Notes under the pieces: generated by a model | What the model saw: only the letters and a program-made list of their open reading frames with translations | Databases searched by the model: none | What the model was told of the DNA's origin: nothing | NCBI GenBank assembly: GCA_963674745.2 | Contig: CAXXDV010000003.1 | Location: 1,760,001-1,824,000, forward strand | Reading direction: 5' to 3' | Origin: Desulfosudaceae bacterium | Lineage (GTDB): Bacteria > Desulfobacterota > Desulfobacteria > Desulfobacterales > Desulfosudaceae | Length of the DNA stretch: 64,000 nucleotides | Program-made: the position numbers and the translations under genes | Part shown: one piece after another, positions 30,817 to 57,503 of the stretch | Layout of the letters: every line of letters begins with the position of its first letter | How positions within the stretch are numbered: position 1 is the first letter of the stretch

Positions 30817-30864
30817 TGCCGTTTCAGCACGCTTCAACTACTTTAATTAACCGGGGACTTTGTT

Positions 30865-32455: not shown

Positions 32456-32466
32456 AGGAACGTGTA

Positions 32467-37862: not shown

Positions 37863-37904
37863 ATCAATTCTCCCTTTAAACACTGATAATGATCCTGACT
37901 GTTC

Positions 37905-38273
37905 TCAATTGCTCCTCTCAACCAGATGCAGGTTCTGCTGTATAATCTTCCGGTGCAGCAGGTGATTTATCTGTTGGCATAGATCCATGCAGATAAACCT
38001 CAGATACCGAGCCTGGCAACCGCGGTTCGGATCGATATTTTCCAGAAAATAATGAAAAAAAATCGTGTCCGGTCCCATGGTCTCAAGCAATGCAGTCAGC
38101 CGTTCGGCCAGCGGATAATAATCATCGATATCGACCGGCTCCAAAATGATTTGATTAACAATCTTCCTGATTTCTGAAAACTCGATTGGATGATCACGGA
38201 TCGCTGACTCTGATTTACTGATGCTAGCCTGACAATTCTGTACTAATTTTTCCATCGGCTTAATTTGACTCAT
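37905..38273 (-). CDS. Hypothetical protein
   Basis: 122-aa ORF with RBS, tightly packed in the operon. Confidence 0.65.
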   Translation of the reverse strand: MSQIKPMEKLVQNCQASISKSESAIRDHPIEFSEIRKIVNQIILEPVDIDDYYPLAERLTALLETMGPDTIFFHYFLENIDPNRGCQARYLRFICMDLCQQINHLLHRKIIQQNLHLVERSN

Positions 38274-38292
38274 GCGTATTCCTTATCGCTCT

Positions 38293-39863: not shown

Positions 39864-39893
39864 AAAATTTTGCCTTATAAAAATTTTGATGCT

Positions 39894-39968
39894 AATTTAT
39901 TGTGATGGCGCCTGAATGTCAAAGTGATTATATTGATAATTATAATAAATATTATTGATAGAATCTAT
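39894..39968 (-). promoter_or_regulatory. Sigma70 promoter with two LysR-like boxes (island promoter 1)
   Basis: ATAGATTCTATCAAT, 16 nt, ATCAATATAATCACT, TTGACA, 17 nt, TAAATT. Confidence 0.65.
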
Positions 39969-40051
39969 ATACTGGTTCCAACACTTACCGGCGATAATGA
40001 GCGTAATATTACCCCAAACGGTGAACATATTTAAAAATACGAAAGAGAGAC

Positions 40052-40666
40052 TTGATGACACGAAAACATTTTTTTACCATGGCCGTCATCGCCATATTGG
40101 CTTTCATGTTGAGTGGTTGCGGCTTTACCGCCATAAACCTGAACCCGGATGTGCCGATTATTATAAGAGCAGAGCCGGATTATCCTAAAGCCATTGTAAT
40201 ATTTGACAGCTGGAGCGGCAATACCACCCTGGTGGCGGAAGTAATAGCCGAACAGCTGAATGCCCCGGCTGTCTCGGTGGCCCAAACCTGCGATTACGAC
40301 ATGGCTGATTTTGATTTGATTGTCGTGGGGTCTCCGGTTCACGGCGGGCGGCCGACCGAAGAGATAAAGGCTTTTCTGGCTGAACTCCCCAAACCCTGCA
40401 TGTCAGCGGTGTTTGTCACCTTCGGAGCACCGCTGTTCGGGCCGATGACGGCTAACGCCTGCCTGAAGAAAATGGAAAAAAGCCTGCAGGGAACCAGCCT
40501 GGGCAAATTTAAGTGTCACGGACGCCACAAAATCCTCCGTACCTATCCCAGTCACCCGGATGAAAAAGATACCGCAGACGCAACACGTTTTGCTCTTGAA
40601 CTGCTCGATCGCTGCCAGAACAATAGCCAGTCAATATCGTCGGAGCCAATTGACGAAGAAAATTGA
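40052..40666 (+). CDS. Flavodoxin-family lipoprotein
   Basis: Lipobox LSGC; SWSGNT; VGSPVH. Confidence 0.82.
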   Translation: MMTRKHFFTMAVIAILAFMLSGCGFTAINLNPDVPIIIRAEPDYPKAIVIFDSWSGNTTLVAEVIAEQLNAPAVSVAQTCDYDMADFDLIVVGSPVHGGRPTEEIKAFLAELPKPCMSAVFVTFGAPLFGPMTANACLKKMEKSLQGTSLGKFKCHGRHKILRTYPSHPDEKDTADATRFALELLDRCQNNSQSISSEPIDEEN

Positions 40667-40726
40667 TCAGGTCGGATTAAATAATGAAATATCCAGGCTA
40701 CGACCGAACAAACCGGCACGATAACG

Positions 40727-41728
40727 TCACTTATCCGTGGCAAAAAATTTTGACGACCCCTCCAATGTTTCACAGCCACATTCTTTAAAAAGAGCCTGAC
40801 AACTGGGGACGCTTTCTCCCCTTCCTTCTTCAGTTTTTTCCCGATTATCCCGGGGGTTAGCGCCGACTTCCGCCCAGAAAAGACTGGCCCCGGCCAAACC
40901 ACCGAGTGTACATGGTTCGTGGGTGCAATTACCCTTAACTGTTCGGGGCATTCCCAGTCGAGTGACTGCAACAATCTGGGCCATCCGCAATTCTGTAATC
41001 ATGCCCAGTTTTGCCATCTCCGTACCTGGAATGGAAATTCTCCGTGCCGCACCGCTGTAAGCCGGATTTAATGAAGCGGTCAACAGAATCATATCGGCCA
41101 GTTCTTCATTGGAATGTTCAGGACCGACCGGCTCCACACAAGTGCCCACCATTAAACCTGCTTCCTGAAAATTACGAATACTTGCAATCCTGGCCTCTGG
41201 ATTAAGGCCCGTGTCTTTTCCTTCTCTTAATCGCCTGGCGTGATATACCCCTGAATATCCGGCATCTTTAATCTTTCTGGCATTCTCCAGGGACTGATCA
41301 CCGATATTGGCGATCATCATGGTTGATGGGTCCAAGTTCTTTCTGATTTCCTGAGAAATCTCAATAAACGCCGAAAAAGAATAATTAGCCGTGATCATAA
41401 CATAAACCGCATTAGCGCCATCGGCTTCAAATTGTCTGGCATAAGCAATGGCATCGTCTATGCTGATAATCGTTTCATCTTGAAAAACACCGTTAATCGT
41501 TGCAAATGAACAAAATTTGCAATTGCAGGGACAGGGCGCAAGATTTAGGGCAAACTGGGCATGAACTTCCGCCTTGTTATCTGTCAGCTCCTTTGATATC
41601 CGGTTGGCTTCAGCCATGATTAGAAAAGACTCAACAGAATCCGATGGAAAACTAAGCATACGAACCAGTTCTTCGCGCGAAAAGCGTATGCCGTCCCCTG
41701 ATTTTTTTATCAGATCATCTATATGCAT
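40727..41728 (-). CDS. Radical SAM protein, biotin-synthase-like fold
   Basis: CPCNCKFCSF; CVEPVGPEH; GANPRD. Confidence 0.85.
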   Translation of the reverse strand: MHIDDLIKKSGDGIRFSREELVRMLSFPSDSVESFLIMAEANRISKELTDNKAEVHAQFALNLAPCPCNCKFCSFATINGVFQDETIISIDDAIAYARQFEADGANAVYVMITANYSFSAFIEISQEIRKNLDPSTMMIANIGDQSLENARKIKDAGYSGVYHARRLREGKDTGLNPEARIASIRNFQEAGLMVGTCVEPVGPEHSNEELADMILLTASLNPAYSGAARRISIPGTEMAKLGMITELRMAQIVAVTRLGMPRTVKGNCTHEPCTLGGLAGASLFWAEVGANPRDNREKTEEGRGESVPSCQALFKECGCETLEGSSKFFATDK

Positions 41729-41749
41729 TCAATAACCTCATAATAAATT

Positions 41750-41781
41750 GAGCAGCCATCGGCTCAAGCCGAAGGCTGCTC
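41750..41781 (-). terminator. Intergenic hairpin (terminator or mRNA stabiliser)
   Basis: GAGCAGCC-A-TCGGCT-CA-AGCCGA-A-GGCTGCTC. Confidence 0.5.
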
Positions 41782-41841
41782 ATCGTTATAACAACTTCTG
41801 TACGCTCTAATCAATGAATTTAATCAGCCCTTTTGAGCCGT

Positions 41842-44652
41842 TTATTCAGGCACACCGGTCTCCCTGTCATGTTCAGAGTCATAAGTCCACAAAAACCACC
41901 CGCCTTCATAGTTTGCGGCAGGCCAGCCAAGCAGATAAGCATAAAAGGTATATTGCGCTGATCGGGCGCCACCGCCGCAATAAAAATACATTTTTTTATC
42001 GGGTGACAGGCCGAGTTCTCTCCAATTGGATTCTGCAATGGTATAAGTTATAAACGACTGATTATTGTCACGTGGGCGTGCAATATCATACCAGTCGCCT
42101 ATCCATACAGCGGTCGGAATCCGGCCGTATTCTTCAAACCACCAGTAGTATGAATTCGTCTCACCGGTATATTCATCCCAGGCCCGGTCATCAACAATCA
42201 CCGAATCATGATCGATACCGTCAACAACATCTTCGACGTCTTCGGTCGTTGCCAGGTATTCCAGGTTCCCCTGTGATTCACCAAAATCCGCGACAGGGGC
42301 CCAGGCAGTCGGTCCTGTCTCGACCATGTATCCGCCTGCCACCCAGGCATCATATCCGCCGTTCAAAATGCGCACATCATCAACCCCGGCATACAAAAGA
42401 CCCCAGGCGATTCGTCCCGCGGTCATGGGCGTAATATCGTCGTCCGCGTAAACAACAACGGTCGTATCCTTTGTAATACCCATACTTGCGAAAAGGGCTT
42501 GAAGATCCGGAAGCGCTTTTACATAAGACTCACTCGGACTTGCATATCCGTCTCCATACTCGGAGCCTGGGCCGGTTTCTATGGAGTACGTATCCAGAAA
42601 TATCGCACCCGGGATATGCCCTTCCGTGGCAAAGGGGGTTCCGGTACCGGTAGTGGATACCTCGTTTGTTTCCCATCGCGGCCACCATGATGTAAAGACA
42701 ACGACATATCCGTTTCCGGGATATGTCGGCGGATTTTCGTCATTAATCAGCTGGTCTACCCAGTCCGGATACACCAGGGCCTGGTAATTGGCCATCTGTT
42801 CCATGGGGTAACAGGCGGGACAGTCAACAGAAGCCGTCGCCCAATCCATAATTGAGCCGTCATAATTTGAAGCCCGATCATATCCCATGAGGCGACAGAG
42901 GAAATACGCAAAACCACTGCGAATACCGATCGTGCAGTAGGATGCAACCTCCTTGTCTTTTGTTACCCCCCGGGATTCGTACAAATCCTTCATTTCAGTA
43001 TATGGCAGAAGGGTCTTGTCGGATTGAAAATTCCATTCATACGGGATCTGAACCGCACCGGTAATATGGCCGCCCCGGGCCTCCCCATATAATGTCCAGC
43101 CGTTGTATTCCTCATCGGTACGGGTATCGATGATCACGAAATCATTATCACCCATCCGGTTTTTAATATGCGCCCTGGTCGAGGTTGCATCTGAATCTGC
43201 CAGCGCTGTAAATGTTGCCCCGGGAAGGACATTAGCGGTTGTCTCCGCCTGGTTGCCGTCAGCTGCCCATTTATCCCAGCCGCCGTTCAAAATACTGACA
43301 TGACTGCATCCCAGCGACTCAAACATCCAGAACAAACGACCTGACGCGCCCCAGGAGGTGGTGGTATCGTCATAGATAATCATCCGGGACGTCCTGGTCA
43401 ACCCGGACTGCCCCAGCAAAATCTCAAGTTGCCCGACCGGTAAAAGCATATTATCCGCATCAACGAACGTCTGCCAGCGCAGGTTCAAAGCACCCGGAAT
43501 ATGGCCGTCATTATATGCATCCTCGCTTCTGGCATCCAAAATAATGACATCGGAGGAATTTAAATCATCGGCATCTGCCAGGAGGCTGTCGTTTGGATAT
43601 CTGCCCGGATCCCCTGTTTCAACCGGACGGGTCGGATCAGCGATCCAGTCGTACCACCCGGAATCCCAGTTCTTAACATCAATATAACCCATCATATAAG
43701 CATACCAGCAGGCGAATCCCGATCTCTGGCCGATGGTACAGATAAACGCAATCGTCTTGCTGTCCGTTACGCCAAGCGCTTCCAGCTCGGTCCTGACCTC
43801 ATCGAAATCACGCAGCATGGCATCTTCGCCGTCAACGCCGCCTTCGATCATACTGAGGTACGGATAATACAAGGAACCGGGAACGCGGCCGGGCGTGCTG
43901 ATGTATGAATGATAATCGTCCGCGCCGATATATTCGTCCCAGGTACGGGTATCCAGCATGATGGCACCGTCCGGATCATTCATGTAAGTTTCCATATCAG
44001 CGGTCGTGGCATTATATTTCGATAATGTCGGATCAGGTATTATTCCGGTGTACGTGACAGGTGTCCTGGCGTTTATTGCGGTTTCAACGGTTCCGCCATA
44101 TGCCTCCCAGGCGGTCACGCCGCCGTTTAATACGCGTACGTCTTCAACGCCTACACACATCAGCGCCCAGGCAACCCTGCCGTAGAGCGTTGCCCATTTA
44201 CTGCAGATCACTACGGTCATATCATGCTCAATACCGATTTCTTCCAGTTTGGCCTTCATTTCAGCCGGTGCCTTAAGGTTGCCACCGTCTGGTGTGGTCG
44301 GATTTTTTGTTTCTTCCTTATTTAACTCCCACCAGCTCACAGGGATGGCGCCCGGCACGTGACCGGCATCATATCCCCCTCCCCAGTTATCAAGATCAAT
44401 AATAATATATCCTTTTCCGGGGTAGTCATCAGGCGTTCCCGCTTTCCCGGGATTACCGCCTTTTATCAGCGCATCAACCCAGGCCGGGGTGACCAGCATT
44501 TTATGCATTCGTGTGTCATTGGTATTACCATCAATTTTTTTACTGCTGCTGCTACTGCCCCCTGTGCCGATGATGGCCACCAGGCCGATCAGAACAATCA
44601 AAAGCATAAAAGTATACCGCAAGATATTAGAAAAATGGACATTTCTCTTCAT
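41842..44652 (-). CDS. Exported multi-rhodanese sulfurtransferase (three tandem rhodanese pairs)
   Basis: Repeated GHxPGA and LNGG motifs; catalytic loops CTIGQRS, CTIGIRS and CGGGARS; start MKRN after AAGGAG. Confidence 0.88.
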   Translation of the reverse strand: MKRNVHFSNILRYTFMLLIVLIGLVAIIGTGGSSSSSKKIDGNTNDTRMHKMLVTPAWVDALIKGGNPGKAGTPDDYPGKGYIIIDLDNWGGGYDAGHVPGAIPVSWWELNKEETKNPTTPDGGNLKAPAEMKAKLEEIGIEHDMTVVICSKWATLYGRVAWALMCVGVEDVRVLNGGVTAWEAYGGTVETAINARTPVTYTGIIPDPTLSKYNATTADMETYMNDPDGAIMLDTRTWDEYIGADDYHSYISTPGRVPGSLYYPYLSMIEGGVDGEDAMLRDFDEVRTELEALGVTDSKTIAFICTIGQRSGFACWYAYMMGYIDVKNWDSGWYDWIADPTRPVETGDPGRYPNDSLLADADDLNSSDVIILDARSEDAYNDGHIPGALNLRWQTFVDADNMLLPVGQLEILLGQSGLTRTSRMIIYDDTTTSWGASGRLFWMFESLGCSHVSILNGGWDKWAADGNQAETTANVLPGATFTALADSDATSTRAHIKNRMGDNDFVIIDTRTDEEYNGWTLYGEARGGHITGAVQIPYEWNFQSDKTLLPYTEMKDLYESRGVTKDKEVASYCTIGIRSGFAYFLCRLMGYDRASNYDGSIMDWATASVDCPACYPMEQMANYQALVYPDWVDQLINDENPPTYPGNGYVVVFTSWWPRWETNEVSTTGTGTPFATEGHIPGAIFLDTYSIETGPGSEYGDGYASPSESYVKALPDLQALFASMGITKDTTVVVYADDDITPMTAGRIAWGLLYAGVDDVRILNGGYDAWVAGGYMVETGPTAWAPVADFGESQGNLEYLATTEDVEDVVDGIDHDSVIVDDRAWDEYTGETNSYYWWFEEYGRIPTAVWIGDWYDIARPRDNNQSFITYTIAESNWRELGLSPDKKMYFYCGGGARSAQYTFYAYLLGWPAANYEGGWFLWTYDSEHDRETGVPE

Positions 44653-44758
44653 AGCTGACTCCTTTGTCATAGCCGGGTAGTCCCGGTCAGATTTTTATTA
44701 CACTAATGAAGCCCTCGAAAACCGGTGCTCAAAAGATGTATGATGCCGTGAAATGTGT

Positions 44759-44834
44759 AGATTAAGACGTGGAGAGGCAGATTGTCCAATACTAAATATT
44801 GATATTAAAAATTTTTAAAATAGTTTTTATCTAT
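44759..44834 (-). promoter_or_regulatory. Promoter with two LysR-like boxes (island promoter 2)
   Basis: ATAGATAAAAACTAT, 16 nt, ATCAATATTTAGTAT, TGGACA, 18 nt, TAATCT. Confidence 0.55.
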
Positions 44835-44839
44835 AGATA

Positions 44840-45700
44840 CTAAGGCACCATTTTATTCCACTCGGCCGTGCCGCCTTCAAAATTGACTGCCGAAGGAGAC
44901 CCGGCCATTTGATGGACCAACCAGGCATACCCGGACCTGATACCGCCCGTGCAGTAGTACACGACGGTCCCGTCCGGTTTGATATCATCATTTGCCAGCA
45001 GTGATTTTAGTTCGGAACGGCCGATCGGTTGCCGGTGTGGACCGGTAAAAAATTTTTCCCATGAGATATGCACGGAATCAGGAATGCGCCCTTTGATCCA
45101 CTCAAAAGTCGAACGGGTATCGACCAGCTGATAAGACGATGGATCGTTTCGAATTTCTTGTGCCGAGATGTTAAGCGAGGGGTTAATCTGATAATGATAG
45201 ACAGATGCCGCTTTATTCAAATTTTTTGCACCGGTTTTCACAGAAAGTCCCTTACCGGTCCAGGCCTGTATACCGCCATTGAGCAGGCGGACCTTGCCCT
45301 GATGACCGATCCAGGCCAAGGCCCAGCAGGCCCAACCTTCTCCGCCCCAACTTGTATCGGCGTCTCCGTAAACAACAAGAGCGGCGTTTTCGCTTATTCC
45401 CATTTCACCCAGTGCTTCAGCCAGCTGATCGGGCGGAAATGTCCGGTAAGGTATGCCTTTTTCGTCGGTTCTGGTATAGTCCTCCCAGCAAAAGGAAGCT
45501 GCTCCGGGTATATGACCGGCCTGCCATTCTTTTTGGGGTCTTGCGTCCAGAATAGTCCAGGCCGAAAGGGTTTGACTCAATTCACCCGTTTCGATTAAAC
45601 CAAGATCAAATGCCTGAGATTTCCCGGGGACTGCAAAATAAGCTGATAATGCAAAAACAATCGCCATGACAAATGCTTTTCGATATAAAAACGTGTACAT
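44840..45700 (-). CDS. Exported two-domain rhodanese/sulfurtransferase
   Basis: Signal peptide, GHIPGA, YCTGGIRS; GGGAG RBS. Confidence 0.9.
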   Translation of the reverse strand: MYTFLYRKAFVMAIVFALSAYFAVPGKSQAFDLGLIETGELSQTLSAWTILDARPQKEWQAGHIPGAASFCWEDYTRTDEKGIPYRTFPPDQLAEALGEMGISENAALVVYGDADTSWGGEGWACWALAWIGHQGKVRLLNGGIQAWTGKGLSVKTGAKNLNKAASVYHYQINPSLNISAQEIRNDPSSYQLVDTRSTFEWIKGRIPDSVHISWEKFFTGPHRQPIGRSELKSLLANDDIKPDGTVVYYCTGGIRSGYAWLVHQMAGSPSAVNFEGGTAEWNKMVP

Positions 45701-47072
45701 AATCAGTCTCCCGCTGATAATTTTTTTGTCCTATTTGATGGCGGCACGGTTGCCGGATTTACGTTTTTCTATTCCCGAGCTGATCGGCTTCAACACCTTG
45801 ATTATCATACTTCTGGCATTGATTCCTGTTCTGAACAAGCAGATTCAGACAGGCTGGTCTCCCGGTTTCATCCTCCTTGTGTCGGCTATCCTGCGCCTGA
45901 TGTTTATATGGCGCATTCCCGAGCTTTCGGATGATATTTTCCGGTACCTTTTTGACGGTCTTATGTCCCTCCATGGGAATAATCCCTACGCAGCCGCACC
46001 TGCGGATATGCTGACAAAGGCCCCATACCTGCAATCGATGATCTCCCGGATCAACCACCCGCACCTTCCAACCATTTATCCGCCTGCGGCCCAGTTTGTG
46101 TTTACCGTAGGCGCCGGTATCGGTGGGATAACGGGCATGAAACTATGTCTGGTCGTGATTGATCTGCTGAGCTGCGCGCTGATAATAATGATCTTAAACA
46201 AACTTGAACTCGATCGCGCCAATGCCGTCCTGTATGCCTGGCATCCCCTGCCGGTCATTGAAGTCGCCGCCTCCGGCCACGTTGACGCAGCCGGAATCTT
46301 CTTCCTTTATTTAACACTGGCCGTCATTATTTCTCTGAAGATCGGCAGCCGACAGAAAAAAAGCGCGCCTGGCAAAACATTACGGTCTCATTCATCAAAA
46401 TCATGGGCCTGTTTCGCCGGACTGATATTTGCCCTGGCGGTTTTGACCAAATGGGCGCCTTTAATGTTTCTGCCAGGTATTCTGCTGTTAATACCTTCCG
46501 GTTCCAGAAAATTCGCAACCCTTGGTTTTCTATCCGCTGCCATCACAATGATCGCCTTTTTCCTGCCTGAAATTACAAACAGTTTTCATACCCTTTCCGT
46601 GTTCACGGCCAACTGGGAATTTTCCGGATTTATCTTCCGTTCACTAAGGGCAATTACCGGCTCCGGGCAAGCGGCCCGGATGTTTATCGTTACAGGATTT
46701 ACAATTATCTCGGTAATCATCTATGGCCGCTTTCTTAAAACACGCCGGTCACCAGCGCTTTTTCGAACAAGAATGTTATTCAAAACATTTTATTTTCTGT
46801 CCATAACGTTCCTGCTGCTGACCCCCACGCTTCATCCCTGGTATGCCCTGTACCTGGCCGCTTTTCTGCCGTTTGCGGCCGGACCCGCCGGAATCGTCTT
46901 TTCCTGGTCTGTCTTTCTCGCCTACCGGGTGCTTTTATTGTACGGCGTGACCGGGCAATGGGTTGAAAACGATTTTATTCCGTTTCTTATTTTTATCGGA
47001 CCGGTAAGCGCGTTTTGCGCCAGCTCAATAATCCGCATGTTGACCGGCAAAAAACATTCGGTTCAGCCCTGA
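45666..47072 (+). CDS. GT-C membrane glycosyltransferase (GT87/DUF2029-like)
   Basis: LSDDIFRYLFDG, TIYPP, YAWHPL, GHVD, HPWY; true start may be 45738. Confidence 0.8.
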   Translation: MTNAFRYKNVYIISLPLIIFLSYLMAARLPDLRFSIPELIGFNTLIIILLALIPVLNKQIQTGWSPGFILLVSAILRLMFIWRIPELSDDIFRYLFDGLMSLHGNNPYAAAPADMLTKAPYLQSMISRINHPHLPTIYPPAAQFVFTVGAGIGGITGMKLCLVVIDLLSCALIIMILNKLELDRANAVLYAWHPLPVIEVAASGHVDAAGIFFLYLTLAVIISLKIGSRQKKSAPGKTLRSHSSKSWACFAGLIFALAVLTKWAPLMFLPGILLLIPSGSRKFATLGFLSAAITMIAFFLPEITNSFHTLSVFTANWEFSGFIFRSLRAITGSGQAARMFIVTGFTIISVIIYGRFLKTRRSPALFRTRMLFKTFYFLSITFLLLTPTLHPWYALYLAAFLPFAAGPAGIVFSWSVFLAYRVLLLYGVTGQWVENDFIPFLIFIGPVSAFCASSIIRMLTGKKHSVQP

Positions 47073-47086
47073 TATTTCATGCTTAC

Positions 47087-47230
47087 GGGGGCACGGCACG
47101 CCGTGCCCCTACGGCAAGCCGTACCCGGATACCGTACCCGTTTGCGGAACGCAATAATGTAGGGGCACGGCGTGCCGTGCCCTATGGCGTGCCGTGCCCT
47201 ATCATCGGGCGACCGCGGGTCGCCCCTACA
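47087..47230. repeat. Cluster of GTAG-type REPs
   Basis: GGGCACGGCACGCCGTGCCCCTAC, GTAGGGGCACGGCGTGCCGTGCCC, GGGCGACCGCGGGTCGCCCCTAC; another copy at 48180-48203. Confidence 0.8.
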
Positions 47231-47303
47231 GCGGCCAGCGACACAGCAGAGGGAGCCAGGGGCTCGGGTTCAAGGTGAATCGCCCGGGCTATTATTTTCG
47301 GGG

Positions 47304-48149
47304 TCAGGGCATCTGATATGTGACCGCCACTGACCAGTTTTCCCCGGCGGAAATGTTTTTGCCGTATATCTCTTTACGGTACCCAAGTTCCGTTCCCCAG
47401 TTATCGGAAATTTTAAATCCCAGGACCGCTTCCAGTTTACCCAGGTCATAATCATACGTGGCACTTGGATTGTCGCTGAAGGCGGACCTTTTTTCGGCAT
47501 TGCCCATGCCGTAAGTGCCGTCCAGCTTAATCCGGCCATATAGTTTTTTCGTAAGATCAGCACCGAACTCAAGCAGGTATTTCAGTTCATCAGCCGGCGC
47601 TTCTGCCCGGAACCGGTAACCGGATTCGAGGTTCAAGTAGCCCGGGAAATGCGGATACAAGGACTGACCATACAGAAACCGGAATTCATAATCATACTGA
47701 GCGTTTCCCAATGGAACCGCGTCGTCTTCATCATAGGCTTCCGGGATCTTGATCAATGTCTGTATCGAGCAAACGCCGCCGTTTTTCTCAAACAGGCGGT
47801 ATTTGAGCCCCAGTTCCAGGTCCGAAAATCCGCTTGTTTCATTGCTGATCAGGTCATTTTCATATTCCAGCCATTTATGTGACCAGGAACCGATGACCGT
47901 CAGGTTGTCGGCCAGACCGTATTCCAGATAAAGACTTATGTTGTCATCGCTGAACTCACCATCGTCGGTAAAATCTTCTTTACTGCCGCCGTTATCAAAA
48001 TTTTCGTCGGCCGTGTAGTTATTGGCCGTTATTTGTGCGTACAGGCCGCCTTTATCTCGGGTCCAGGCACCGGCAAAGACAGGTCCGGCAATAAAGACCG
48101 AGATCAAAGCGCTTAAGAATAAAATTTTTACTGGTCTGTAATCAGACAT
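47304..48149 (-). CDS. Putative outer-membrane beta-barrel protein
   Basis: Signal peptide ending AGAW; YLEYGL; beta-strand pattern; start MSDY after AAGGAG. Confidence 0.65.
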   Translation of the reverse strand: MSDYRPVKILFLSALISVFIAGPVFAGAWTRDKGGLYAQITANNYTADENFDNGGSKEDFTDDGEFSDDNISLYLEYGLADNLTVIGSWSHKWLEYENDLISNETSGFSDLELGLKYRLFEKNGGVCSIQTLIKIPEAYDEDDAVPLGNAQYDYEFRFLYGQSLYPHFPGYLNLESGYRFRAEAPADELKYLLEFGADLTKKLYGRIKLDGTYGMGNAEKRSAFSDNPSATYDYDLGKLEAVLGFKISDNWGTELGYRKEIYGKNISAGENWSVAVTYQMP

Positions 48150-48273
48150 TTGGGTTTTCTCCTTTTCCAACCATCTTAAGGGCACGGCACGCCGTGCCCC
48201 TACATTCATTTGCGTTCTGTATAGGGCATGATACGCGGTCCCCATACATGAATTTTCGTCCTGCACCAAATTA

Positions 48274-50121
48274 TTATTTTCCCCTGGAACGAACATAGCG
48301 GTAGACCACGGGCAGCAGCATCACTGCGCCGATTAGGGCGAGACCGACGCCAAAGGCCGGTGAGACCCTGCCCCGGACCAGGTCCGGCAGGGAACTTGAA
48401 AATACAATAAAGGCAATGCAGGCCGGCAACATACATATAAACGAAACCACGGCATAATGAAGAAACGGTATAGCGGTCAGCCCGAAGGCATAGTTGAGTA
48501 AATTGAAAGGAAAAACAGGTATAAGCCTGGTAAAGGCCACAATTTTCCACCCATGCCGGGACACGCCTTCATCAAGTTTATTCCACCCGGGACCGGTCAG
48601 GCGCTGTTTGATCAGATCCCTGGCTGCGTACCGGGCGACTAGAAACGACAGGCTGGCGCCGGATGTGGCGCCGATAATGGCATACACCACACCCCAGAAA
48701 GGACCGAACAGAATACCGCCGACCACGGTGATGGGAAGGCCGGGCAGAAACAGGACCGGGGCAATTGTATAAATCAGTATATACAAAATGGGCGCGAATA
48801 CACCCCAGGATTCAACCCATTGACGAAGGTAGGCCTGATCCAGCAGGCGCGTCCCCCCGGCCATATTAAAAGCGCCGATAACGGCGGCCAGAAACAGCAG
48901 AATAAAAATCTGCTTGAAAGGTTTCTTCTTTGAGACCGGATCGGCTGAGAATGATCGTTCCCGCGTGACATCACCGGGCACATGCTTTTTAAAAAATTGT
49001 TTGAGACGTAAACGGTTAAGATATGTCAACGGGGATTTGGACACTTTGACCTTGCCTGATTCAACCGCCCCGGGATCTAAGACAGCGTCCAGAATATGAC
49101 ATACAGGCATCTGTTGATTCAGCCTGTCCGCGCATCCGGCGCAGTAGGTCAACAACATCCGGCCGTCTGCTTCCTCCCGGCGCCGGCCTGTCCAGTTGTT
49201 GGCTAACGCCGGAGAAACCAATCCGACACAGCCCCCTTCCCCGCAGCAGATGGTGTTGCCGCGCGCATGCAGCATATCCACAATGGAAAAACCTTTTGCC
49301 TCGGCCAGTTTTCTGACGGCTTTATGGATCTCTCCCCGTGTTCTGGTGACACAGGGATCATGGATGGATACAACCATACCGTCCTCAATTCGACCGGTAT
49401 CGGGCAAACCGTTCTGAGCCAGGACTTCATATACGGAAGTAACCTGAAGCGGTTCACCATATTCCTTAAACACGGTATAACAATTGGGACAGGCGGTAAT
49501 AATCTCTTTAATCCCGTGACCGACCAGAAAAATTTTCATTTCATCCATCATGGCCGAAAAATAATCCGAACGGCCCAGGTCATGTGACGGTTTGCAGCAG
49601 CAATCAAGCACCACACCCAGAACAGGATCCGTTTGTTTTAAATGTTCATAGATCGCGATGGTCTGATTCGGCCGGGATCCGGGCAGCGTACAACCGGGGA
49701 AAAAGACCGTATGACAGTCCCGGGGAAGACTGTAATAAGAAAATCGCCGGGATGCGCCCCGCCGTTCATAAGACATCAAAACCCCGTGTTCCGGCAACGG
49801 CGCCGTGTTACGATCGACCGCCTCTCTTCTCATCTCCAGGAACATTTTTTCCGGTTGCAGCCCGACAGGGCAGACCTGACCGCAAAGCCCGCACAGGCTG
49901 CATTCATAGGCCATTAACAACCAGCGGTTTTCAGCAGGATCGTAATTTAAAGCAATCTCACGTGGTGTTCCGTATTGCTCCAGAAAAGCGCACTCCGCCC
50001 GGCATTTGGGACAATCGATACAGCGCTGTTTCACATCGTCGATAAGCGTATCAAGCCCCGACCGGAAATCGGACTGACGTTTTTCGTTATTCTGCAGATT
50101 TTGATTTTTCATCTTTTCCAT
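48274..50121 (-). CDS. (Fe-S)-binding CCG oxidoreductase fused to a VTT/DedA (TVP38) domain
   Basis: CIDCPKC, CSLCGLCGQVCP, HDPC, CCGEGG; C-terminal RLIPVFPFNLLNY. Confidence 0.85.
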   Translation of the reverse strand: MEKMKNQNLQNNEKRQSDFRSGLDTLIDDVKQRCIDCPKCRAECAFLEQYGTPREIALNYDPAENRWLLMAYECSLCGLCGQVCPVGLQPEKMFLEMRREAVDRNTAPLPEHGVLMSYERRGASRRFSYYSLPRDCHTVFFPGCTLPGSRPNQTIAIYEHLKQTDPVLGVVLDCCCKPSHDLGRSDYFSAMMDEMKIFLVGHGIKEIITACPNCYTVFKEYGEPLQVTSVYEVLAQNGLPDTGRIEDGMVVSIHDPCVTRTRGEIHKAVRKLAEAKGFSIVDMLHARGNTICCGEGGCVGLVSPALANNWTGRRREEADGRMLLTYCAGCADRLNQQMPVCHILDAVLDPGAVESGKVKVSKSPLTYLNRLRLKQFFKKHVPGDVTRERSFSADPVSKKKPFKQIFILLFLAAVIGAFNMAGGTRLLDQAYLRQWVESWGVFAPILYILIYTIAPVLFLPGLPITVVGGILFGPFWGVVYAIIGATSGASLSFLVARYAARDLIKQRLTGPGWNKLDEGVSRHGWKIVAFTRLIPVFPFNLLNYAFGLTAIPFLHYAVVSFICMLPACIAFIVFSSSLPDLVRGRVSPAFGVGLALIGAVMLLPVVYRYVRSRGK

Positions 50122-50136
50122 ATATCATTTTTTTGT

Positions 50137-50211
50137 TTCATAGGCAGAAAGACCAAATAAGTCAAATTGAAATTATCAATAGCTTTATCCACACCTATAC
50201 ATAATTTCAAT
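50137..50211 (-). promoter_or_regulatory. Promoter with two LysR-like boxes (island promoter 3)
   Basis: ATTGAAATTATGTAT, 16 nt, ATTGATAATTTCAAT, TTGACT, 17 nt, TATGAA. Confidence 0.6.
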
Positions 50212-51736: not shown

Positions 51737-51816
51737 CCCGAAGATTTCACGAGTCGAATTTAATGCAACCATCCAGGGCCTTGGCCGCCTTCTGCAAGGC
51801 ACAGGGTTCTGCTATC

Positions 51817-51875
51817 GTAGGGGCACCCCCCTGTGGTTGCCCTTTTGCCGGGCAGGCACGGGGGCCTGCCCCTAC
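51817..51875. repeat. REP doublet
   Basis: GTAGGGGCACCCCCCTGTGGTTGCCC ... GGGCAGGCACGGGGGCCTGCCCCTAC. Confidence 0.8.
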
Positions 51876-51957
51876 AAAATCCGCGGACGAAATGCAAAAC
51901 ATCAGAAGGGGCAGGGGGATGGTTTAAGTTGATGCACCCGAAGAATAAAATGTTCGG

Positions 51958-52827
51958 TTAAGCCCGATTGTAGTATTTCCGATACAGCTTGACTGTGTCC
52001 GGGTCCGACCACAAACGGCGAATCAGATATGTTGTTACCTGCCTTAAAACCCAGGGCGCATTTCGAAAACCGGTCTTATCCCATCGCCTGGTGGAGACAA
52101 GGACGTTGCCGATCAGGTAAATCTGTCGACCCAGCCGATGAAGTCTTATGGAAAATTCCACATCTTCCATCAGGGCGATACCCGGAAACATATCCCGGTC
52201 AACAACCGGCTGTCTACGAAAAAACTGGACCTGATCACCGAAACTGATTTTAAAAAATGCGGCCCGGAAGTCATTGGCCAGTTCGATAAACCGGAACCAT
52301 AATCGGGAAGAATCAAACCGGCAGCCCACGGCGCCGCCGATAACACCGGGATGTTTATTCAGAGCGGCAAGTACCCGGTCAATTTCTTCGGCCGGCAACA
52401 TAGCATCGGCATGAAGGATCATCACCACATCACCTTTAGCTGCGTCGATGCCGGATTTGATCTGTCCGCCCCGCCCGCCGCCGTCTTCAATCGGTTGATC
52501 ATGAATAATCACCCGGGCGCCGGATTCTCTCGCCAGTATGCAGGTCCGATCTTCAGACCCGGCATCAATCACAAGCGTTTCCACCACACGCGCATTATCC
52601 GAAAAGGCCTGCAAACATCGGACGATATGATTTTCTTCGTTTAAAGTCGGGATAATAATTGATACGGAATGGCAGGGTGATGATGGGAATTTTTTTCTTT
52701 TTTCCCTCCATGTTTGAACGTCTTCATATGCGAACAAAAACAAAAAAGGCAATCGTGCCGCCATTTGCGCCCCGACCGGCAGACCATGCGCAACTGTCTT
52801 CAGCTTTTCAGCAAGACTATCTTTCAT
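51958..52827 (-). CDS. GT2 glycosyltransferase resembling the rSAM/selenodomain-associated TIGR04283 family
   Basis: SIIIPTLNEE, LHAD, FGDQ, LMEDV, STRRW. Confidence 0.75.
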   Translation of the reverse strand: MKDSLAEKLKTVAHGLPVGAQMAARLPFLFLFAYEDVQTWREKRKKFPSSPCHSVSIIIPTLNEENHIVRCLQAFSDNARVVETLVIDAGSEDRTCILARESGARVIIHDQPIEDGGGRGGQIKSGIDAAKGDVVMILHADAMLPAEEIDRVLAALNKHPGVIGGAVGCRFDSSRLWFRFIELANDFRAAFFKISFGDQVQFFRRQPVVDRDMFPGIALMEDVEFSIRLHRLGRQIYLIGNVLVSTRRWDKTGFRNAPWVLRQVTTYLIRRLWSDPDTVKLYRKYYNRA

Positions 52828-53042
52828 TCATAATCGATTTCTTTTATCAGATCCTGAATCAATTGCTTCAGATCCAAATTATATTTTCCAGCAACGGTCT
52901 TTAATGGATCAAACAATGCCTGGCAGCAGATACATTCTCCGGCAATATGATCATATTTTTTAAAAACCGCTTCAGTTGACCGGAACCGGCTGACGATGTC
53001 AAGTACGGTCATATCGGGGCTTATTTTTTCGATGTCTTCCAT
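52824..53042 (-). CDS. Small DUF1858-like protein
   Basis: ISPDMTVLDIV...CICCQALF. Confidence 0.65.
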   Translation of the reverse strand: MEDIEKISPDMTVLDIVSRFRSTEAVFKKYDHIAGECICCQALFDPLKTVAGKYNLDLKQLIQDLIKEIDYE

Positions 53043-53070
53043 GGCGGTTTTTTCCAGTCGTGTCTAGATA

Positions 53071-53360
53071 AAAGGGCAACCACAGGGGGTTGCCCCTACG
53101 GGTTTGTCCAGGCCGATCATGAGCATTGTAGGGGCAGGCCCCTGTGCCTGCCCAGTAAAAGGGCAACCACAGGGGGTTGCCCCTACGGGTTTGTCCAGGC
53201 CGATCATGAGCATTGTAGGGGCAGGCCCCTGTGCCTGCCCAGTAAAAGGGCAACCACAGGGGGTTGCCCCTACGGGTTTGTCCAGGCCGATTATGAGCAT
53301 TGTAGGGGCAGGCCCCTGTGCCTGCCCGGCAAAGGGCACCCACTGGGGGTTGCCCCTGCA
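53071..53360. repeat. BIME-like tandem array: three 87-bp REP-doublet units plus a partial fourth
   Basis: GGGCAACCAC recurs at 53074, 53161 and 53248, with a variant at 53334; linkers nearly identical. Confidence 0.92.
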
Positions 53361-53384
53361 TGGCAGAACAATCCGAGAGATATT

Positions 53385-54524
53385 CTACAGACCAAATGCC
53401 ACCTGAAATGTAACAATGTCAACGGTATTGGTATCATCATCCACCTGTGACCATTCCAGGGTCAGTTTATTGGCCGGACCTTTTAAATAATAGTTACACC
53501 CGACCCCGTAAACGGTCGTATCATCCGTGCCGGGATCGTCGGGCATGATGGTTTCGTAATGCGCGAAAGGTTGAATATTACCGGCCAGCAGCACACCGGC
53601 TTTGGCCGTGAAAATATCCCCGTCCGTTCCGGAAGTCAGGTCGGACCAGGTCACGCTGTTGACAATATTATCAAGCCAGATATAGGCAAACTCGGCTGTA
53701 ATGGCGCAGGCTTCCATGGGGATGTCCAGATGAATGTCTGCAGTAAACCCCGTGTAGTCCTCTTTGTTACCGCCCATCATCAGGTCCGGCTGATAATCAA
53801 AACCGCCCCCGATAGCAACGATATTCTTTTTACCCAGATAAGTACCGCCATTAAACCAGGCTGTCTCAGTGTCAAACAGGTTCAGGCTCAAGCGACCGGC
53901 CAGCCGGATCTTATCATCCGGATTAACCGTGCTGTTTTCTACGCCTTCTCCAACCATCAGGCGGTACTGCAGTTTATCTTCCAGCACATTACCCCAGAGG
54001 GTAACACTGTCATCCCGTCCCACCTTTGTGGGGTACAGAATGCCGCTGCGCAGTCCGCCCTGGCCCCAGTCCAGTTCGGTCGTCAGCAAAGACTTGGTGG
54101 AAGTGGTGCCGTAGTTCCGGGTGAAGGGCACATACATTCGCCCGACCTGGATCATAAAATCATCTCCCAGCAGTTTATAATTGACCCAGCCGTCCCGCAA
54201 GGCCAGCCCTGTGCCCAGGCCCATGCCGGAATTATCCAAACCTTCCTGGCCGATCCGGTCCCCGGCGTAATGAACAAAAAAACTGATTTTCGGTGTCACG
54301 GTTCCACTGACGCTGAAATAAGTGCGGCGCACCATGAAATCATTCAGCTCGTCATCCCATTCACCATCTCCGTCACGGTCATAATCTCCTACATACTGAT
54401 ACCAGGCCTGTCCCCAGAAGCCCACATTCAAACTCATATCACCGTCTTTATACACTTCCACGGCTCCGGCCAGCGATGGCAATAACATTGCCCCGATACA
54501 GAAAAACACCAGCTTTTTCAACAT
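53385..54524 (-). CDS. Porin, ExtI-like (phosphate-selective porin fold)
   Basis: Signal peptide, F..RR.Y, RDGWV, VPFTR, GRDD; C-terminal beta strand; located in the yedE operon. Confidence 0.7.
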   Translation of the reverse strand: MLKKLVFFCIGAMLLPSLAGAVEVYKDGDMSLNVGFWGQAWYQYVGDYDRDGDGEWDDELNDFMVRRTYFSVSGTVTPKISFFVHYAGDRIGQEGLDNSGMGLGTGLALRDGWVNYKLLGDDFMIQVGRMYVPFTRNYGTTSTKSLLTTELDWGQGGLRSGILYPTKVGRDDSVTLWGNVLEDKLQYRLMVGEGVENSTVNPDDKIRLAGRLSLNLFDTETAWFNGGTYLGKKNIVAIGGGFDYQPDLMMGGNKEDYTGFTADIHLDIPMEACAITAEFAYIWLDNIVNSVTWSDLTSGTDGDIFTAKAGVLLAGNIQPFAHYETIMPDDPGTDDTTVYGVGCNYYLKGPANKLTLEWSQVDDDTNTVDIVTFQVAFGL

Positions 54525-55423
54525 GTCTCCCTCTCCTTTGTTTTGTTTAAAATGGTATTATGTTTATCCTCATTAAGAAAAGACGCGGCGCATTCGGAAA
54601 GGCACCGGATAATATCGATCACTTGTGAACCGGGATCAGGACGGGCCGTCTCTCCGGCCAGGCGGCTGATGGCAGAAGCATGGCAGCAGGCGATGGGAAT
54701 CTCATATCCCAGACCGGTCAGAGCCGCCACCAGCCCGGTCAGAATGTCCCCGGTTCCGCCGATGGCTTCCAGGACCGCCACCATAGGTTCGGATACGGCC
54801 TGAATGATTCCATCAGCATCCGCCAATACATCCTGTTCACCCTTGATTAACAGGTACCGGGCGGCGTTTTGGTATTGATAGGCCCTTGCAATCAACTCCG
54901 GAACACGATTTGATTCATGAAATATAAACCCCCGTGTATAAAATGGATGGGGCGCGGATTCATCGGCCAGAAAAGCCAGTTCACCGATATCCGGTGTAAA
55001 AATATCGTAAAAATCGGCATACCCGCTCATTTTGGCGGCATACATGAATCCGGCATCCGCAATGACGACCGGGCGGGGCGACATTTTCTCCATGGCCAGC
55101 ATGACCCGGTTATGCCAGTCGACGTCCGGTTGAATATAATGAAAGGTCAGGCTGCCAAACTTTTGGGACGGCAGATCGGCTTCCAGATGGCTATAAAGTT
55201 TCCGGCTGCCGGCACCGGTCCCGATGTCACCGACCAGGTACGCGAACGGGGGCGGCGCGTTGAAATAATCACAGATATTGACCGCAGCGGCCAGCAAGGC
55301 CGGTGTACCCCGGTTAACGGCAAGACGGTGGCCATTGATCTCAAGCATCCGACCGGACAAGGCGACCTGCCCGCAGGTTAAAGGGAACTGCTGATCCGGG
55401 ACTGTACCGACTACGGCGAACAT
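54518..55423 (-). CDS. Ribokinase-like/carbohydrate-kinase (NnrD-like) protein associated with yedE clusters
   Basis: IADAG, TPDIGEL, GGTGDILTG. Confidence 0.78.
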   Translation of the reverse strand: MFAVVGTVPDQQFPLTCGQVALSGRMLEINGHRLAVNRGTPALLAAAVNICDYFNAPPPFAYLVGDIGTGAGSRKLYSHLEADLPSQKFGSLTFHYIQPDVDWHNRVMLAMEKMSPRPVVIADAGFMYAAKMSGYADFYDIFTPDIGELAFLADESAPHPFYTRGFIFHESNRVPELIARAYQYQNAARYLLIKGEQDVLADADGIIQAVSEPMVAVLEAIGGTGDILTGLVAALTGLGYEIPIACCHASAISRLAGETARPDPGSQVIDIIRCLSECAASFLNEDKHNTILNKTKERETC

Positions 55424-55959
55424 TGGCGCTCCATTTCCTCATAAGCCAGTTGCAGCGCGTACCCGCACAAGGTATGCCCGATACTGCGGGGAGACGGCGC
55501 TTCATCCAGGCTTTTGCCGACCATCTCGGCGGCCAGATAAGGCACATCCGGACATCCGCCACCGGAAATATTGACCACGGTCCGGGTTTCTTTTTCCACT
55601 GTGATTTTCATATTCGCGGCCCGGACCATCAGAAACCGGCCATAATCGGTGGTAAAAAAAATATCGACCGGCTCCAGCAGCGGGCTGGAGACAGGCACGA
55701 TCTGAAGCGGAGCAATCTGGCCTGATTCCAGGACCCGCAGAATCTCGAGTTCCTCGATCAGGGGAAATTCAATCACCAGGTCACAACCGGTCCGGATTTC
55801 CGGCGGCGGGCCCATGACCCGTATTTTCCACCCGTTTTTGGCAAGCAGGTTTTCCGCCTGGATCACTTCGCTGGTGTTCTCAAATACCAGGATACCGCGA
55901 TCCTTCAAACCGGCAACACCGGCCGACGGCTTCTTTTTGAAAAAATCAAAAATCCCCAC
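55411..55959 (-). CDS. DUF3343 domain protein
   Basis: FENTSEVIQAE, PPEIRTGCD. Confidence 0.8.
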   Translation of the reverse strand: MGIFDFFKKKPSAGVAGLKDRGILVFENTSEVIQAENLLAKNGWKIRVMGPPPEIRTGCDLVIEFPLIEELEILRVLESGQIAPLQIVPVSSPLLEPVDIFFTTDYGRFLMVRAANMKITVEKETRTVVNISGGGCPDVPYLAAEMVGKSLDEAPSPRSIGHTLCGYALQLAYEEMERQCSP

Positions 55960-55962
55960 ACC

Positions 55963-56178
55963 TTACCCCTTGCGGATCTCAAGCCGATAGGTTTCATCTT
56001 CAGAGGTAATACCAGCCACCTGCCATCCCTGGCTCTCAACCGCCCGGCTGACATTCTCTTTTGAGGCCTCGGTATCCACCAGCACCAGAAATTCATCGGC
56101 AGTTGCCTTTTTTAAAGCATCTACGGTCATTAACACCGGTTGCGGGCAGGACAGCCCCCGGGCGTCGATTGTTTCCAT
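55963..56178 (-). CDS. yedF: TusA/SirA-family sulfur/selenium carrier
   Basis: IDARGLSCPQPV. Confidence 0.88.
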   Translation of the reverse strand: METIDARGLSCPQPVLMTVDALKKATADEFLVLVDTEASKENVSRAVESQGWQVAGITSEDETYRLEIRKG

Positions 56179-56259
56179 ATTATTTCTCCTTCTTGTTCGT
56201 GTTGGTATATCTTGTTCGTGATCAATGAAACCACTGTCAGGGCGACCGGCGGGCCGCCC

Positions 56260-57339
56260 CTACTTCTGCTTAACAGTGAAACCGATGACCACACATACAA
56301 CCAGGCCGATCACTACCGCGGCCAACCCATGAGGACCGATGCCCTTTGGTGAACTGGCCAAACCGAAATTATGGGCAAAAGCGGCCCCGGCCACCATGCC
56401 GACGACAAAAATGCCGGCGTCCGTGTCCCCTTCCCCGGATAAAAACAACTGTCGGCCGGGACATCCACCGGCCAGGGCAAAGGCCAGGCCGGCCAGGACC
56501 ATGCCCAACGCATTCCAGACATGCTGGGTATGCGCCACCGGTTGGCCTTCGAACCCGGGTTTGAACTGCCCCAGGATCAAGTTGGTGACGAACGCGAAAA
56601 CAATCAGGGCCACAACACCTGAAAACAGATGAATCTGTTTGAACAGAATCAGATCGCGGAAAGCGCCCATGGTGCAGAACCGGCTCCGCTGGGCGAAAAA
56701 ACCGATCACCAGACCGACCAAAATAGAGATAATCAGGGGGGCGTGCATGGCGCCCGGACCTTTTGAGCTGTAAAACAATACCCCGCTCTGGGCTTCCCCT
56801 TCCGCCTGGGGATAAATCAGCATGAGCAGTAAAAACCCGATGGCCAGAACCGGCAGAATCAATCCCGCGGCCGGAGAGAATTTATGGGTCCGACCGAGGT
56901 TGTACCCGCTTTTTAAAAACCGGGTGCCGATCCAGACACCAATTACAAGGCCGAACAGACCGAGAATCGCGTTCCAGTCGCCACCGGCCAGACGCAGCAT
57001 GGCCCGCCAGGGGCACCCCAGAAAAACCAGGGCGCCGATCATGGCAAAAGCCCCAAGGATAAAACGAACCAGCGGGGAGGATCCGCCCCTTGGTCTGAAT
57101 TCTTTAAAAATAAGGGCTGCAACCAGGGAACCGATGACAAACCCGATAATCTCCGGCCGCATATACTGGACCACGCCGGCCCGATGCAAACCCAGGGCAC
57201 CGGTAATATCCCTGACAAAACAGGCCACGCAGATCCCCATATTCCCCGGGTTACCCCAGTACTGCAACAGCGCGGCGATGACGCCGATAAAAGCGCCTAC
57301 ACCGATGATCCCCCACCGTGTCGCAAAAACATTCTTCAT
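56260..57339 (-). CDS. yedE: YedE-family putative selenium transporter
   Basis: GNPGNMGICVACF, LGCPWR, QRSRFC, GGCPGRQ. Confidence 0.92.
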   Translation of the reverse strand: MKNVFATRWGIIGVGAFIGVIAALLQYWGNPGNMGICVACFVRDITGALGLHRAGVVQYMRPEIIGFVIGSLVAALIFKEFRPRGGSSPLVRFILGAFAMIGALVFLGCPWRAMLRLAGGDWNAILGLFGLVIGVWIGTRFLKSGYNLGRTHKFSPAAGLILPVLAIGFLLLMLIYPQAEGEAQSGVLFYSSKGPGAMHAPLIISILVGLVIGFFAQRSRFCTMGAFRDLILFKQIHLFSGVVALIVFAFVTNLILGQFKPGFEGQPVAHTQHVWNALGMVLAGLAFALAGGCPGRQLFLSGEGDTDAGIFVVGMVAGAAFAHNFGLASSPKGIGPHGLAAVVIGLVVCVVIGFTVKQK

Positions 57340-57427
57340 TACACCACCCTCTCCTTTATAAATTTCATTTCAAACATAAAAGTGCACAAAAGGCCGTTGC
57401 AGCCGACATTTGTGACCTGAATTATTA

Positions 57428-57503
57428 ACCATAATGTTGCGTTTACAAATAAGTAAAATAGTAAATTTCTATATATTAGCATCGACCGATCAGGATTATC
57501 TAT
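57428..57503 (-). promoter_or_regulatory. Promoter with two LysR-like boxes (island promoter 4)
   Basis: ATAGATAATCCTGAT, 16 nt, ATAGAAATTTACTAT, TTTACT, 18 nt, TATGGT. Confidence 0.55.

Follow-up and report, generated by a model that had tools for sequence, protein, structure and literature searches.

The archaeal regulator HrsM, found in Methanococcus voltae and M. maripaludis, binds the frc-vhc intergenic region and exerts selenium-dependent transcriptional control, acting under selenium-adequate conditions, and selenium starvation of M. maripaludis raises yedE mRNA by 5.28 log2-fold and upregulates a set of loci that includes a PstS gene (PMC11097638). The same study states that a selenium-specific transporter has been established in no organism and that selenium sensing and signalling by HrsM are unknown (PMC11097638). 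The LysR_Se family of regulators has been equated with HrsM and was predicted in 2015 to regulate selenium genes (Lin et al. 2015, PMC5322559), a prediction that a 2022 review merely repeats (PMC9312934). The 2015 paper contains neither ‘binding site’ nor ‘promoter’ (PMC5322559), and a literature search, mostly without subscription journals, found no paper giving a binding site or regulon for a bacterial LysR_Se. Here, a candidate LysR_Se operator is described at four promoters of a selenium gene island in a 64,000-nucleotide (nt) stretch of DNA from a Desulfosudaceae bacterium (assembly GCA_963674745.2, contig CAXXDV010000003.1, positions 1,760,001 to 1,824,000), referred to at its full length as the window. 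The family had already been predicted and its archaeal member tied experimentally to selenium; what appears to be new, judging from sequence, is the bacterial operator and its predicted regulon.

LysR_Se and HrsM are alike in that yedE and PstS are selenium-responsive in M. maripaludis, and the operator stands before yedE and PstS-like genes in the present genome or in relatives. HrsM differs in being archaeal, and the role ascribed to it is repression of Cys-isoform hydrogenase genes; the predicted targets here are bacterial promoters of sigma-70 type, which drive genes for uptake and trafficking and have a geometry suggestive of activation. The 2015 prediction also differs, in that it took selenocysteine (Sec)-decoding genes as the main targets (PMC5322559), whereas a matrix scan of the present genome (G000) found no operator site at selD, selA or canonical selB, all of which are located elsewhere in the genome.

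In the sliding-dimer model of LysR-type regulation a tetramer anchors near -65 and, in the active state, its second dimer lies just upstream of -35 (PMC11495319, which gives the BenM dyad as ATAC-N7-GTAT). The sites described here resemble canonical LysR operators in their 15-bp T-N11-A dyads, in having a presumed distal anchoring site and a site directly upstream of -35 (the AS2 position in PMC11495319), and in the regulator being divergent from its target, as found in relatives. They depart from them as follows: the distal site has its centre at about -74 and not -65, 31 bp separate the centres of the two dyads, conservation is strong in both dyads, a -10-proximal site is not apparent, and in G000 the regulator is unlinked.

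Reduced OxyR contacts dyad pairs that lie one extra helical turn apart, an arrangement resembling the 16-nt spacer found here. OxyR operators are also said to contain ATAG-N7-CTAT repeats (reportedly the work of Toledano et al. 1994), and two of the eight boxes in the window (S2 distal and S4 proximal) are exact matches to this dyad. The targets here differ in being selenium genes, and the LysR-type regulator of G000 is not OxyR, scoring 92.9 bits against the OxyR model NF008361, for which the cut-off is 329. A further comparison is with ExtH and ExtI of Geobacter sulfurreducens, a rhodanese and a porin implicated in selenite and tellurite reduction (PMC5877670): the island porin matches ExtI and its rhodanese ExtH, both below equivalog cut-offs, but the island is without ext cytochromes and its genes are grouped with yedE and yedF, not as an electron conduit.

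Architecture of the four promoters

A first-pass annotation of the window had placed four two-box sites on the minus strand, and re-examination of the letters bears this out: all eight boxes, the 16-nt spacers and the adjoining hexamers lie at the positions it gave (S1 to S4, Table 1), three of the four distal boxes start with ATAGAT, and seven of the eight boxes fit T-N11-A, the exception being the S1 proximal box, with C at position 14. Each box is a 15-bp imperfect dyad with a consensus of roughly ATNGAWA-N-TWTCNAT, the T-N11-A lying inside it. Nineteen sites from nine genomes, the four of the island amongst them, were combined into a matrix with the spacer columns zeroed; it gives a dyad consensus of ATNGAW-N3-WTCNAT, the outer A/T columns of which were fixed by the search pattern, and scores the whole of S1 at 44.3. 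The pattern-free columns of these 19 sites look as expected of a protein-binding site: the box interiors are nearly pure A/T, and the 16-nt spacer is of mixed composition and without conservation. G is found at position 4 in 18/19 distal boxes and C at position 12 in 17/19 proximal boxes, the search pattern having limited position 4 to A or G and position 12 to non-A.

From centre to centre the two dyads are separated by 31 bp, equal to three turns of the helix, and at all four sites the last base of the proximal dyad directly precedes a -35-like hexamer. This hexamer is read as the -35 element because a TA, the start of a -10 element and a pattern-free feature, sits 17 or 18 nt past it in 15 of the 19 sites (other offsets, 0-5). 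A simple promoter scan lists S1 only (TTGACA-17-TAAATT). At S3 the distal box (50197-50211) overlaps the annotated ATG (50210) of a divergent GT2 glycosyltransferase gene; either this start is wrongly annotated or the regulator also acts on the divergent gene.

Occurrence in the genome

The G000 genome is 5.55 Mb in size, giving 11.09 M positions over both strands, and both genome-wide scans and spacer controls show that the pattern occurs in clear excess of background frequency. The expression AT-N11-AT, 16 nt, AT-N11-AT, T[TG][GT]AC[AT] has only three matches on the two strands, namely S2, S3 and S4; S1 is missed because its proximal box ends in CT. When matrices were built from three sites each and used to find the fourth, the held-out site ranked within the top 5, 5, 16 and 115 of all positions, ranks that count the three training sites as well. 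A degenerate two-box pattern gave nine matches with a spacer of 16, whereas spacers of 14, 15, 17 and 18 together gave 22, a background of about five each, and amongst its matches a -35-like hexamer follows only the four in the island. The two-box matrix scan that the first-pass annotation had proposed was also carried out: at spacer 16 five sites score at least 30, these being S1-S4 and one before a PHP-hydrolase/yedF pair, and the corresponding counts at spacers 13, 14, 15, 17, 18 and 19 are 0, 1, 0, 0, 0 and 0, with counts at a score of at least 10 flat across spacers (30-44).

The shared two-box architecture is real and lies far above chance. That it reflects a mere likeness of A/T-rich intergenic regions is scarcely credible: the pattern was indeed defined post hoc and the boxes are A/T-rich, but the held-out sites rank from 5 to 115 of 11.09 M positions, the excess is confined to the 16-nt spacer, 41 related genomes yield 25 matches against two for a reversed control, and orthologs in other families and phyla are preceded by the same architecture. 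Within the reach of computation, these controls refute chance.

Other candidate sites were set aside. Two at other spacers (C1:1513150 and C1:1518260) have a good proximal box and hexamer but fall within or between small open reading frames (ORFs), and a 50-nt element in three copies (spacer 18) was judged a repeat and no operator. G000 holds three identical copies (C1:1589421, C1:1211002 and C3:108956) of a stretch 84 nt or more in length, comprising ATAGGATTTTCGTTT...TTTACT and the next 30 nt, which probably belong to a repeated or mobile element.

Conservation in relatives and in other phyla

The layout of box, 16 nt, box and TTGACA precedes orthologous yedE, yedF, HdrD-like, ExtH-like rhodanese and PstS-like genes in many Desulfobacterales and in further phyla. 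The HdrD-VTT gene behind S3 provides the clearest series: in the congener G002 its ortholog, 68% identical, lies behind ATCGAAATAATGTAT-16-ATAGATAATATCGAT-TTGACA, and in G027, from another family, the ortholog lies behind ATAGAATTTTACACT-16-ATAGACGAAATCGAT-TTGACA. In both genomes the boxes are kept and the spacers are unrelated in sequence to the G000 spacer; the operator is also found upstream of HdrD-VTT in G024. In G002 it additionally precedes the ExtH-like rhodanese and yedE, and the S4 proximal box, hexamer and next 3 nt are identical to the G002 sequence save for one base. Elsewhere the operator stands before yedE in G023 and G038, before the HmcF-like HdrD in G017 and, in G009 and G027, before PstS-family binding proteins, whose scores are 214.1 and 222.3 bits in no stated order. 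It also stands before a pair of genes for double-cubane-cluster reductases, with scores of 473.5 and 416.4 bits (these PstS-family and double-cubane loci are L031, L033 and L035 in G027 and L084 in G009). The double-cubane reductases and PstS-family binders, which lie outside the window, are possible further components of selenium handling.

Searches across 41 related genomes with the pattern plus hexamer gave the 25 matches noted above, in 14 genomes, of which approximately 18 precede yedE, PHP/yedF, HdrD-like, rhodanese, PstS-family or double-cubane-reductase genes; the remainder, for instance before lpxC or without a downstream ORF, look like chance matches. A site scoring above 20 lies within 450 bp upstream of 13 of the 22 yedE genes of relatives, that of G000 included. 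Amongst 80 public yedE loci from Desulfobacterales, Desulfatiglandales, Desulfovibrionales, Syntrophales, Nitrospirota and Bacillota, 27 score above 20 and 14 above 33 in the 500 bp upstream; the region upstream of yedE in Desulfonema magnum, a relative that can be cultivated and has this operator, scores 39.7. The yedE sequences closest to that of G000 place the organism in the Desulfobacterales. The complete genome G039, without a LysR_Se match, has a yedE with no site, which is a single anecdote.

LysR_Se as the candidate regulator

The first-pass annotation had proposed a LysR protein encoded outside the window, and the genome holds exactly one candidate: its single LysR_substrate match is a 308-aa protein at C1:85622-86548, on another contig, which scores 295.4 bits (cut-off 250) against NF040786, the ‘selenium metabolism-associated LysR family transcriptional regulator’ (LysR_Se); the G002 ortholog scores 284.7 bits. 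SelD and Sec decoding, expected of organisms carrying LysR_Se (PMC5322559), are both represented in G000, which has selD, selA and selB. Within the window no regulator adjoins the island, the only one seen being an OmpR-type pair at 25202-27489 by CotH/VTC genes.

The gene is tied to the operator in relatives. In six of them, from four genera, lysR_Se is divergent from an operator-bearing yedE or yedF promoter: in G002 the operator lies between lysR_Se and yedE, the yedE operon having the same gene order as in the window, and in G004, G006, G007, G009 and G012 a two-box/TTGACA site lies between lysR_Se and yedF. In G034, L142 and L156 lysR_Se is just upstream on the same strand. Over 30 lysR_Se loci (about 116 kb) three sites score above 23, all at most 100 bp from the lysR start; by comparison, the whole G000 genome has six positions above 18. 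In G000 the pair of lysR_Se and an ABC-F gene has apparently been split from yedE by rearrangement.

The boxes also vary together with the regulator. Regulators with an SQPT[VI]SSH recognition helix, as in G000 and most relatives, pair with AT(A/C/T)GA-type boxes, and those with an AQ[AP]SVSERI helix pair with the proximal box ATCGGnnnTTCCAGT-TTGAC at five of five sites found (G030, G034, G035, L142 and L156), proximal boxes ending in TTCCAGT being found in 0/16 cases in SSH-type genomes. A looser pattern, ATNNNNNNTTCCNGTTTGAC, proved noisy, with 29 matches against nine for the control, and only matches of the form ATCGG...TTCCAGT were kept from that search.

The conserved architecture, its confinement to selenium genes, the linkage to lysR_Se and the helix co-variation were all computed here, and on their strength the four sites are quite likely to be operators of one transcription factor, most likely the LysR_Se (NF040786) of contig C1, the binding of which is predicted. 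It is unlikely that the operator, though real and conserved, is bound by another protein, either the ModE-N-like one at C3:2045051-2045434 or an unrecognised regulator, with the LysR_Se linkage reflecting a shared selenium context. Such an assignment would suit the absence of linkage between the G000 LysR_Se gene and any of the five sites, the presence of a second HTH_1 protein (the ModE-N-like one, of 127 aa, which scores 87.7 bits against TIGR00637, below the cut-off of 98.5) and the lack of any regulator within 2.5 kb of most yedE loci that have a strong site. However, the gene of that sole other HTH_1 protein adjoins a formate-dehydrogenase/NuoG-like gene, not selenium genes; in 24 yedE loci with strong scores the genes closest upstream show no other recurrent regulator family, a single DtxR-type gene being the only regulator there; and the operator both sits within the lysR_Se divergent intergenic region of six genomes and co-varies with the LysR_Se helix.

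The boxes could instead be a promoter-upstream architecture without a dedicated regulator, such as UP-element-like A/T tracts or a nucleoid-protein site, which is considered very improbable. They are A/T-rich, occupy -36 to -81, the zone of UP elements and bending proteins, and are followed by strong -35 hexamers; yet they show dyad symmetry with fixed G and C positions (partly restricted by the search pattern), the spacer between them is free in sequence but fixed at 16 nt, there are only about five such sites in the genome, all before selenium genes, and the boxes co-vary with the regulator helix.

Proposed mode of control

We infer LysR_Se binding, together with the oligomeric state, ligand and sign of control that follow. 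A LysR_Se tetramer would place one dimer on the distal box, serving as a regulatory anchoring site centred at about -74, and the second on the proximal box (about -50 to -36), in an RNA polymerase-recruiting position next to -35. As 31 bp corresponds to three helical turns, both dimers would face one side of the helix, and since the proximal box lies at the active-state position next to -35, the conserved pair is read as the activating configuration of LysR_Se. Transcription of genes for selenium acquisition and trafficking would then follow the ligand state of LysR_Se, the predicted targets being the yedE/yedF system, the ExtI-like porin, the ExtH-like rhodaneses, the HdrD-like reductases, IscA_HesB_Se and the SelB paralog.

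Sulfide is an anti-inducer of CysB. For LysR_Se, we favour a scheme in which scarcity of selenium leads to activation and a selenium metabolite (selenide or selenophosphate) serves as the anti-inducer; this is a best guess and the least secure step of the scheme. Selenite induction, a detoxification logic hinted at by the Ext-like genes, and plain repression are possible alternatives.

Several observations weigh against LysR_Se acting in this way. The distal box spans about -81 to -67, its centre at about -74 from the predicted start being some 10 bp beyond the canonical -65; the regulatory-to-activation-site spacing of BenM-type operators is one turn shorter than 31 bp; no third, -10-proximal site was seen at these promoters; and the -35 hexamers are near-consensus, which is unusual for strictly activator-dependent promoters and makes repression possible. 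The G000 lysR_Se is unlinked to any site and its own upstream region is siteless (best score -9.7), so that the regulator is not divergent from a target in this genome. The co-variation of helix and box may go back to one ancestral split of two regulator clades, and the picture is less clean in the SSH-type genomes G006, G007, G009 and G012, where proximal boxes of the form TTCCG(G/T)T occur; in G019, with a SERI-type regulator, no two-box site with the CC-type pattern was found. Of the three sequencing runs listed for the organism, all from one study, none is recorded as RNA. Finally, many of the patterns and the matrix derive from the same sites that they score; independent weight is carried by the ranks of held-out sites, by the controls on spacer length and by the conservation seen in other genomes.

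A wider proposition can be advanced only tentatively, with doubt somewhat outweighing confidence: that this is the first bacterial LysR_Se operator and regulon, present in several phyla, in which an unusually extended dyad pair, 31 bp between centres and adjoining -35, would activate dedicated high-affinity scavenging when selenium is scarce, a metabolite would shut it off, and the SSH and SERI clades would read two dialects of the operator. If true, the scavenging pathway would consist of the outer-membrane ExtI-like porin, periplasmic rhodaneses, PstS-like binders, YedE/YedF, HdrD-like reductases and the SelB paralog. The operator would tie LysR_Se to concrete promoters and can be scanned for in any genome. 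Its compact predicted regulon names candidates for uptake and trafficking (yedE/yedF, the ExtI-like porin, the multi-rhodanese, the PstS-like binder, and the HdrD-like and double-cubane reductases), offering a testable picture of how bacterial selenium-uptake genes may be switched and a ready-made candidate for a selenium-responsive promoter in biosensors.

Genes behind the operators

The operators precede four minus-strand gene groups, operons A to D (Table 1). Their content (porin, periplasmic rhodaneses, PstS-like binders, YedE/YedF, reductases and Fe-S/Se carriers, taken together with the relatives) is that of an acquisition pathway. In operon D yedF is split into a TusA-like part and a DUF3343 protein; the fifth site, on another contig, precedes genes for a PHP hydrolase of the CehA/McbA type and for a full-length YedF, the latter scoring 209.8 bits. 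The first-pass annotation had regarded the island as a single regulon, and the common operator at its four promoters upholds this in part; the fifth site takes the predicted regulon beyond the island, and the plus-strand genes of the island are unsupported as members.

Table 1. Operator sites, promoters and the genes downstream of them. Positions are those of the window except where a contig is given.
Feature	Position	Strand	Remarks
S1 distal box	39954..39968	-	ATAGATTCTATCAAT
S1 proximal box	39923..39937	-	ATCAATATAATCACT; adjoins -35
S1 promoter	39894..39922	-	TTGACA, 17 nt, TAAATT; 10/12 consensus matches
S2 distal box	44820..44834	-	ATAGATAAAAACTAT; exact ATAG-N7-CTAT dyad
S2 proximal box	44789..44803	-	ATCAATATTTAGTAT
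S2 promoter	44759..44788	-	TGGACA, 18 nt, TAATCT
S3 distal box	50197..50211	-	ATTGAAATTATGTAT; kept in G002, G027, G024
S3 proximal box	50166..50180	-	ATTGATAATTTCAAT; ATTG-N7-CAAT dyad
S3 promoter	50137..50165	-	TTGACT, 17 nt, TATGAA
S4 distal box	57489..57503	-	ATAGATAATCCTGAT
S4 proximal box	57458..57472	-	ATAGAAATTTACTAT; exact ATAG-N7-CTAT dyad
S4 promoter	57428..57457	-	TTTACT, 18 nt, TATGGT
Fifth site	C1:1700847		ATCGGCTTTTTCTAT-16-ATTGAAACAATCAAT-TTGATT; score 33.5 (genome-wide matrix scan)
Operon A (S1)	35400..39603	-	four genes; putatively co-transcribed, from gaps of 19-123 nt
A: HmcF/TmcB-like HdrD-type Fe-S protein	38293-39603	-	
A: 122-aa unknown	37905-38273	-	
A: IscA_HesB_Se	37554-37883	-	97.5 bits, cut-off 85
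A: SelB paralog	35400-37430	-	TIGR00475 239.9 bits, cut-off 242.25
Operon B (S2)	40727..44670	-	two genes
B: six-domain ExtH-like rhodanese	41842-44670	-	ExtH model 73.8 bits, equivalog cut-off 200
B: BioB-like radical SAM protein	40727-41728	-	
Operon C (S3)	47304..50121	-	two genes
C: HdrD-like/VTT fusion	48274-50121	-	related to ‘diclust_near_Sec’
C: 330-aa unknown, possibly outer-membrane barrel	47304-48296	-	weak AcfA-family match, E 0.0016
Operon D (S4)	51958..57339	-	seven genes; predicted transcript extent
D: yedE selenium transporter	56260-57339	-	TIGR04112 501.7 bits
D: TusA-like YedF N-terminal part, 71 aa	55963-56178	-	
D: DUF3343 Se/S carrier	55411-55959	-	
D: Carb_kinase-like	54518-55423	-	
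D: ExtI-like porin	53385-54524	-	ExtI model 133.9 bits, equivalog cut-off 150
D: 120-aa unknown	52999-53361	-	
D: GT2	51958-52827	-	

The Sec-decoding genes are distributed elsewhere: selA (607.9 bits) is present, canonical selB lies at C1:1156265-1158157 (369.8 bits) and selD at C1:326061-326981 (368.6 bits), and the one in-frame TGA of selD suggests that it probably encodes a selenoprotein itself. A second SelB-like factor, the paralog at 35400-37430, sits within the predicted LysR_Se regulon. In-frame TGA extensions of the first gene of each operon were examined and none was convincing.

The S1 promoter is followed, ahead of the start codon of the HdrD-like gene, by a leader of 284 nt (39604-39893, minus strand), which holds a short ORF with an ATG at 39863, an in-frame TGA at codon 9 and then Cys-rich codons. 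A leader of this length is not universal, as the G017 ortholog has only 74 nt from hexamer to start codon. Searched against Rfam with gathering thresholds, the whole window gave no match, and no known riboswitch accounts for the promoter regions or for the S1 leader.

Four ORFs of the island, at 45666-47072 (plus strand) and at 47304-48296, 37905-38273 and 52999-53361 (all minus strand), belong to no significant Pfam or NCBIfam family. The first of these, of 468 aa, breaks the run of minus-strand genes, and the AT skew flips there, which suggests that it is a real gene. Away from the island, the region 25202-33642 contains the OmpR-type two-component pair beside CotH kinase, VTC-domain, DUF4956 and phosphate-porin genes, a cluster unrelated to the operator.

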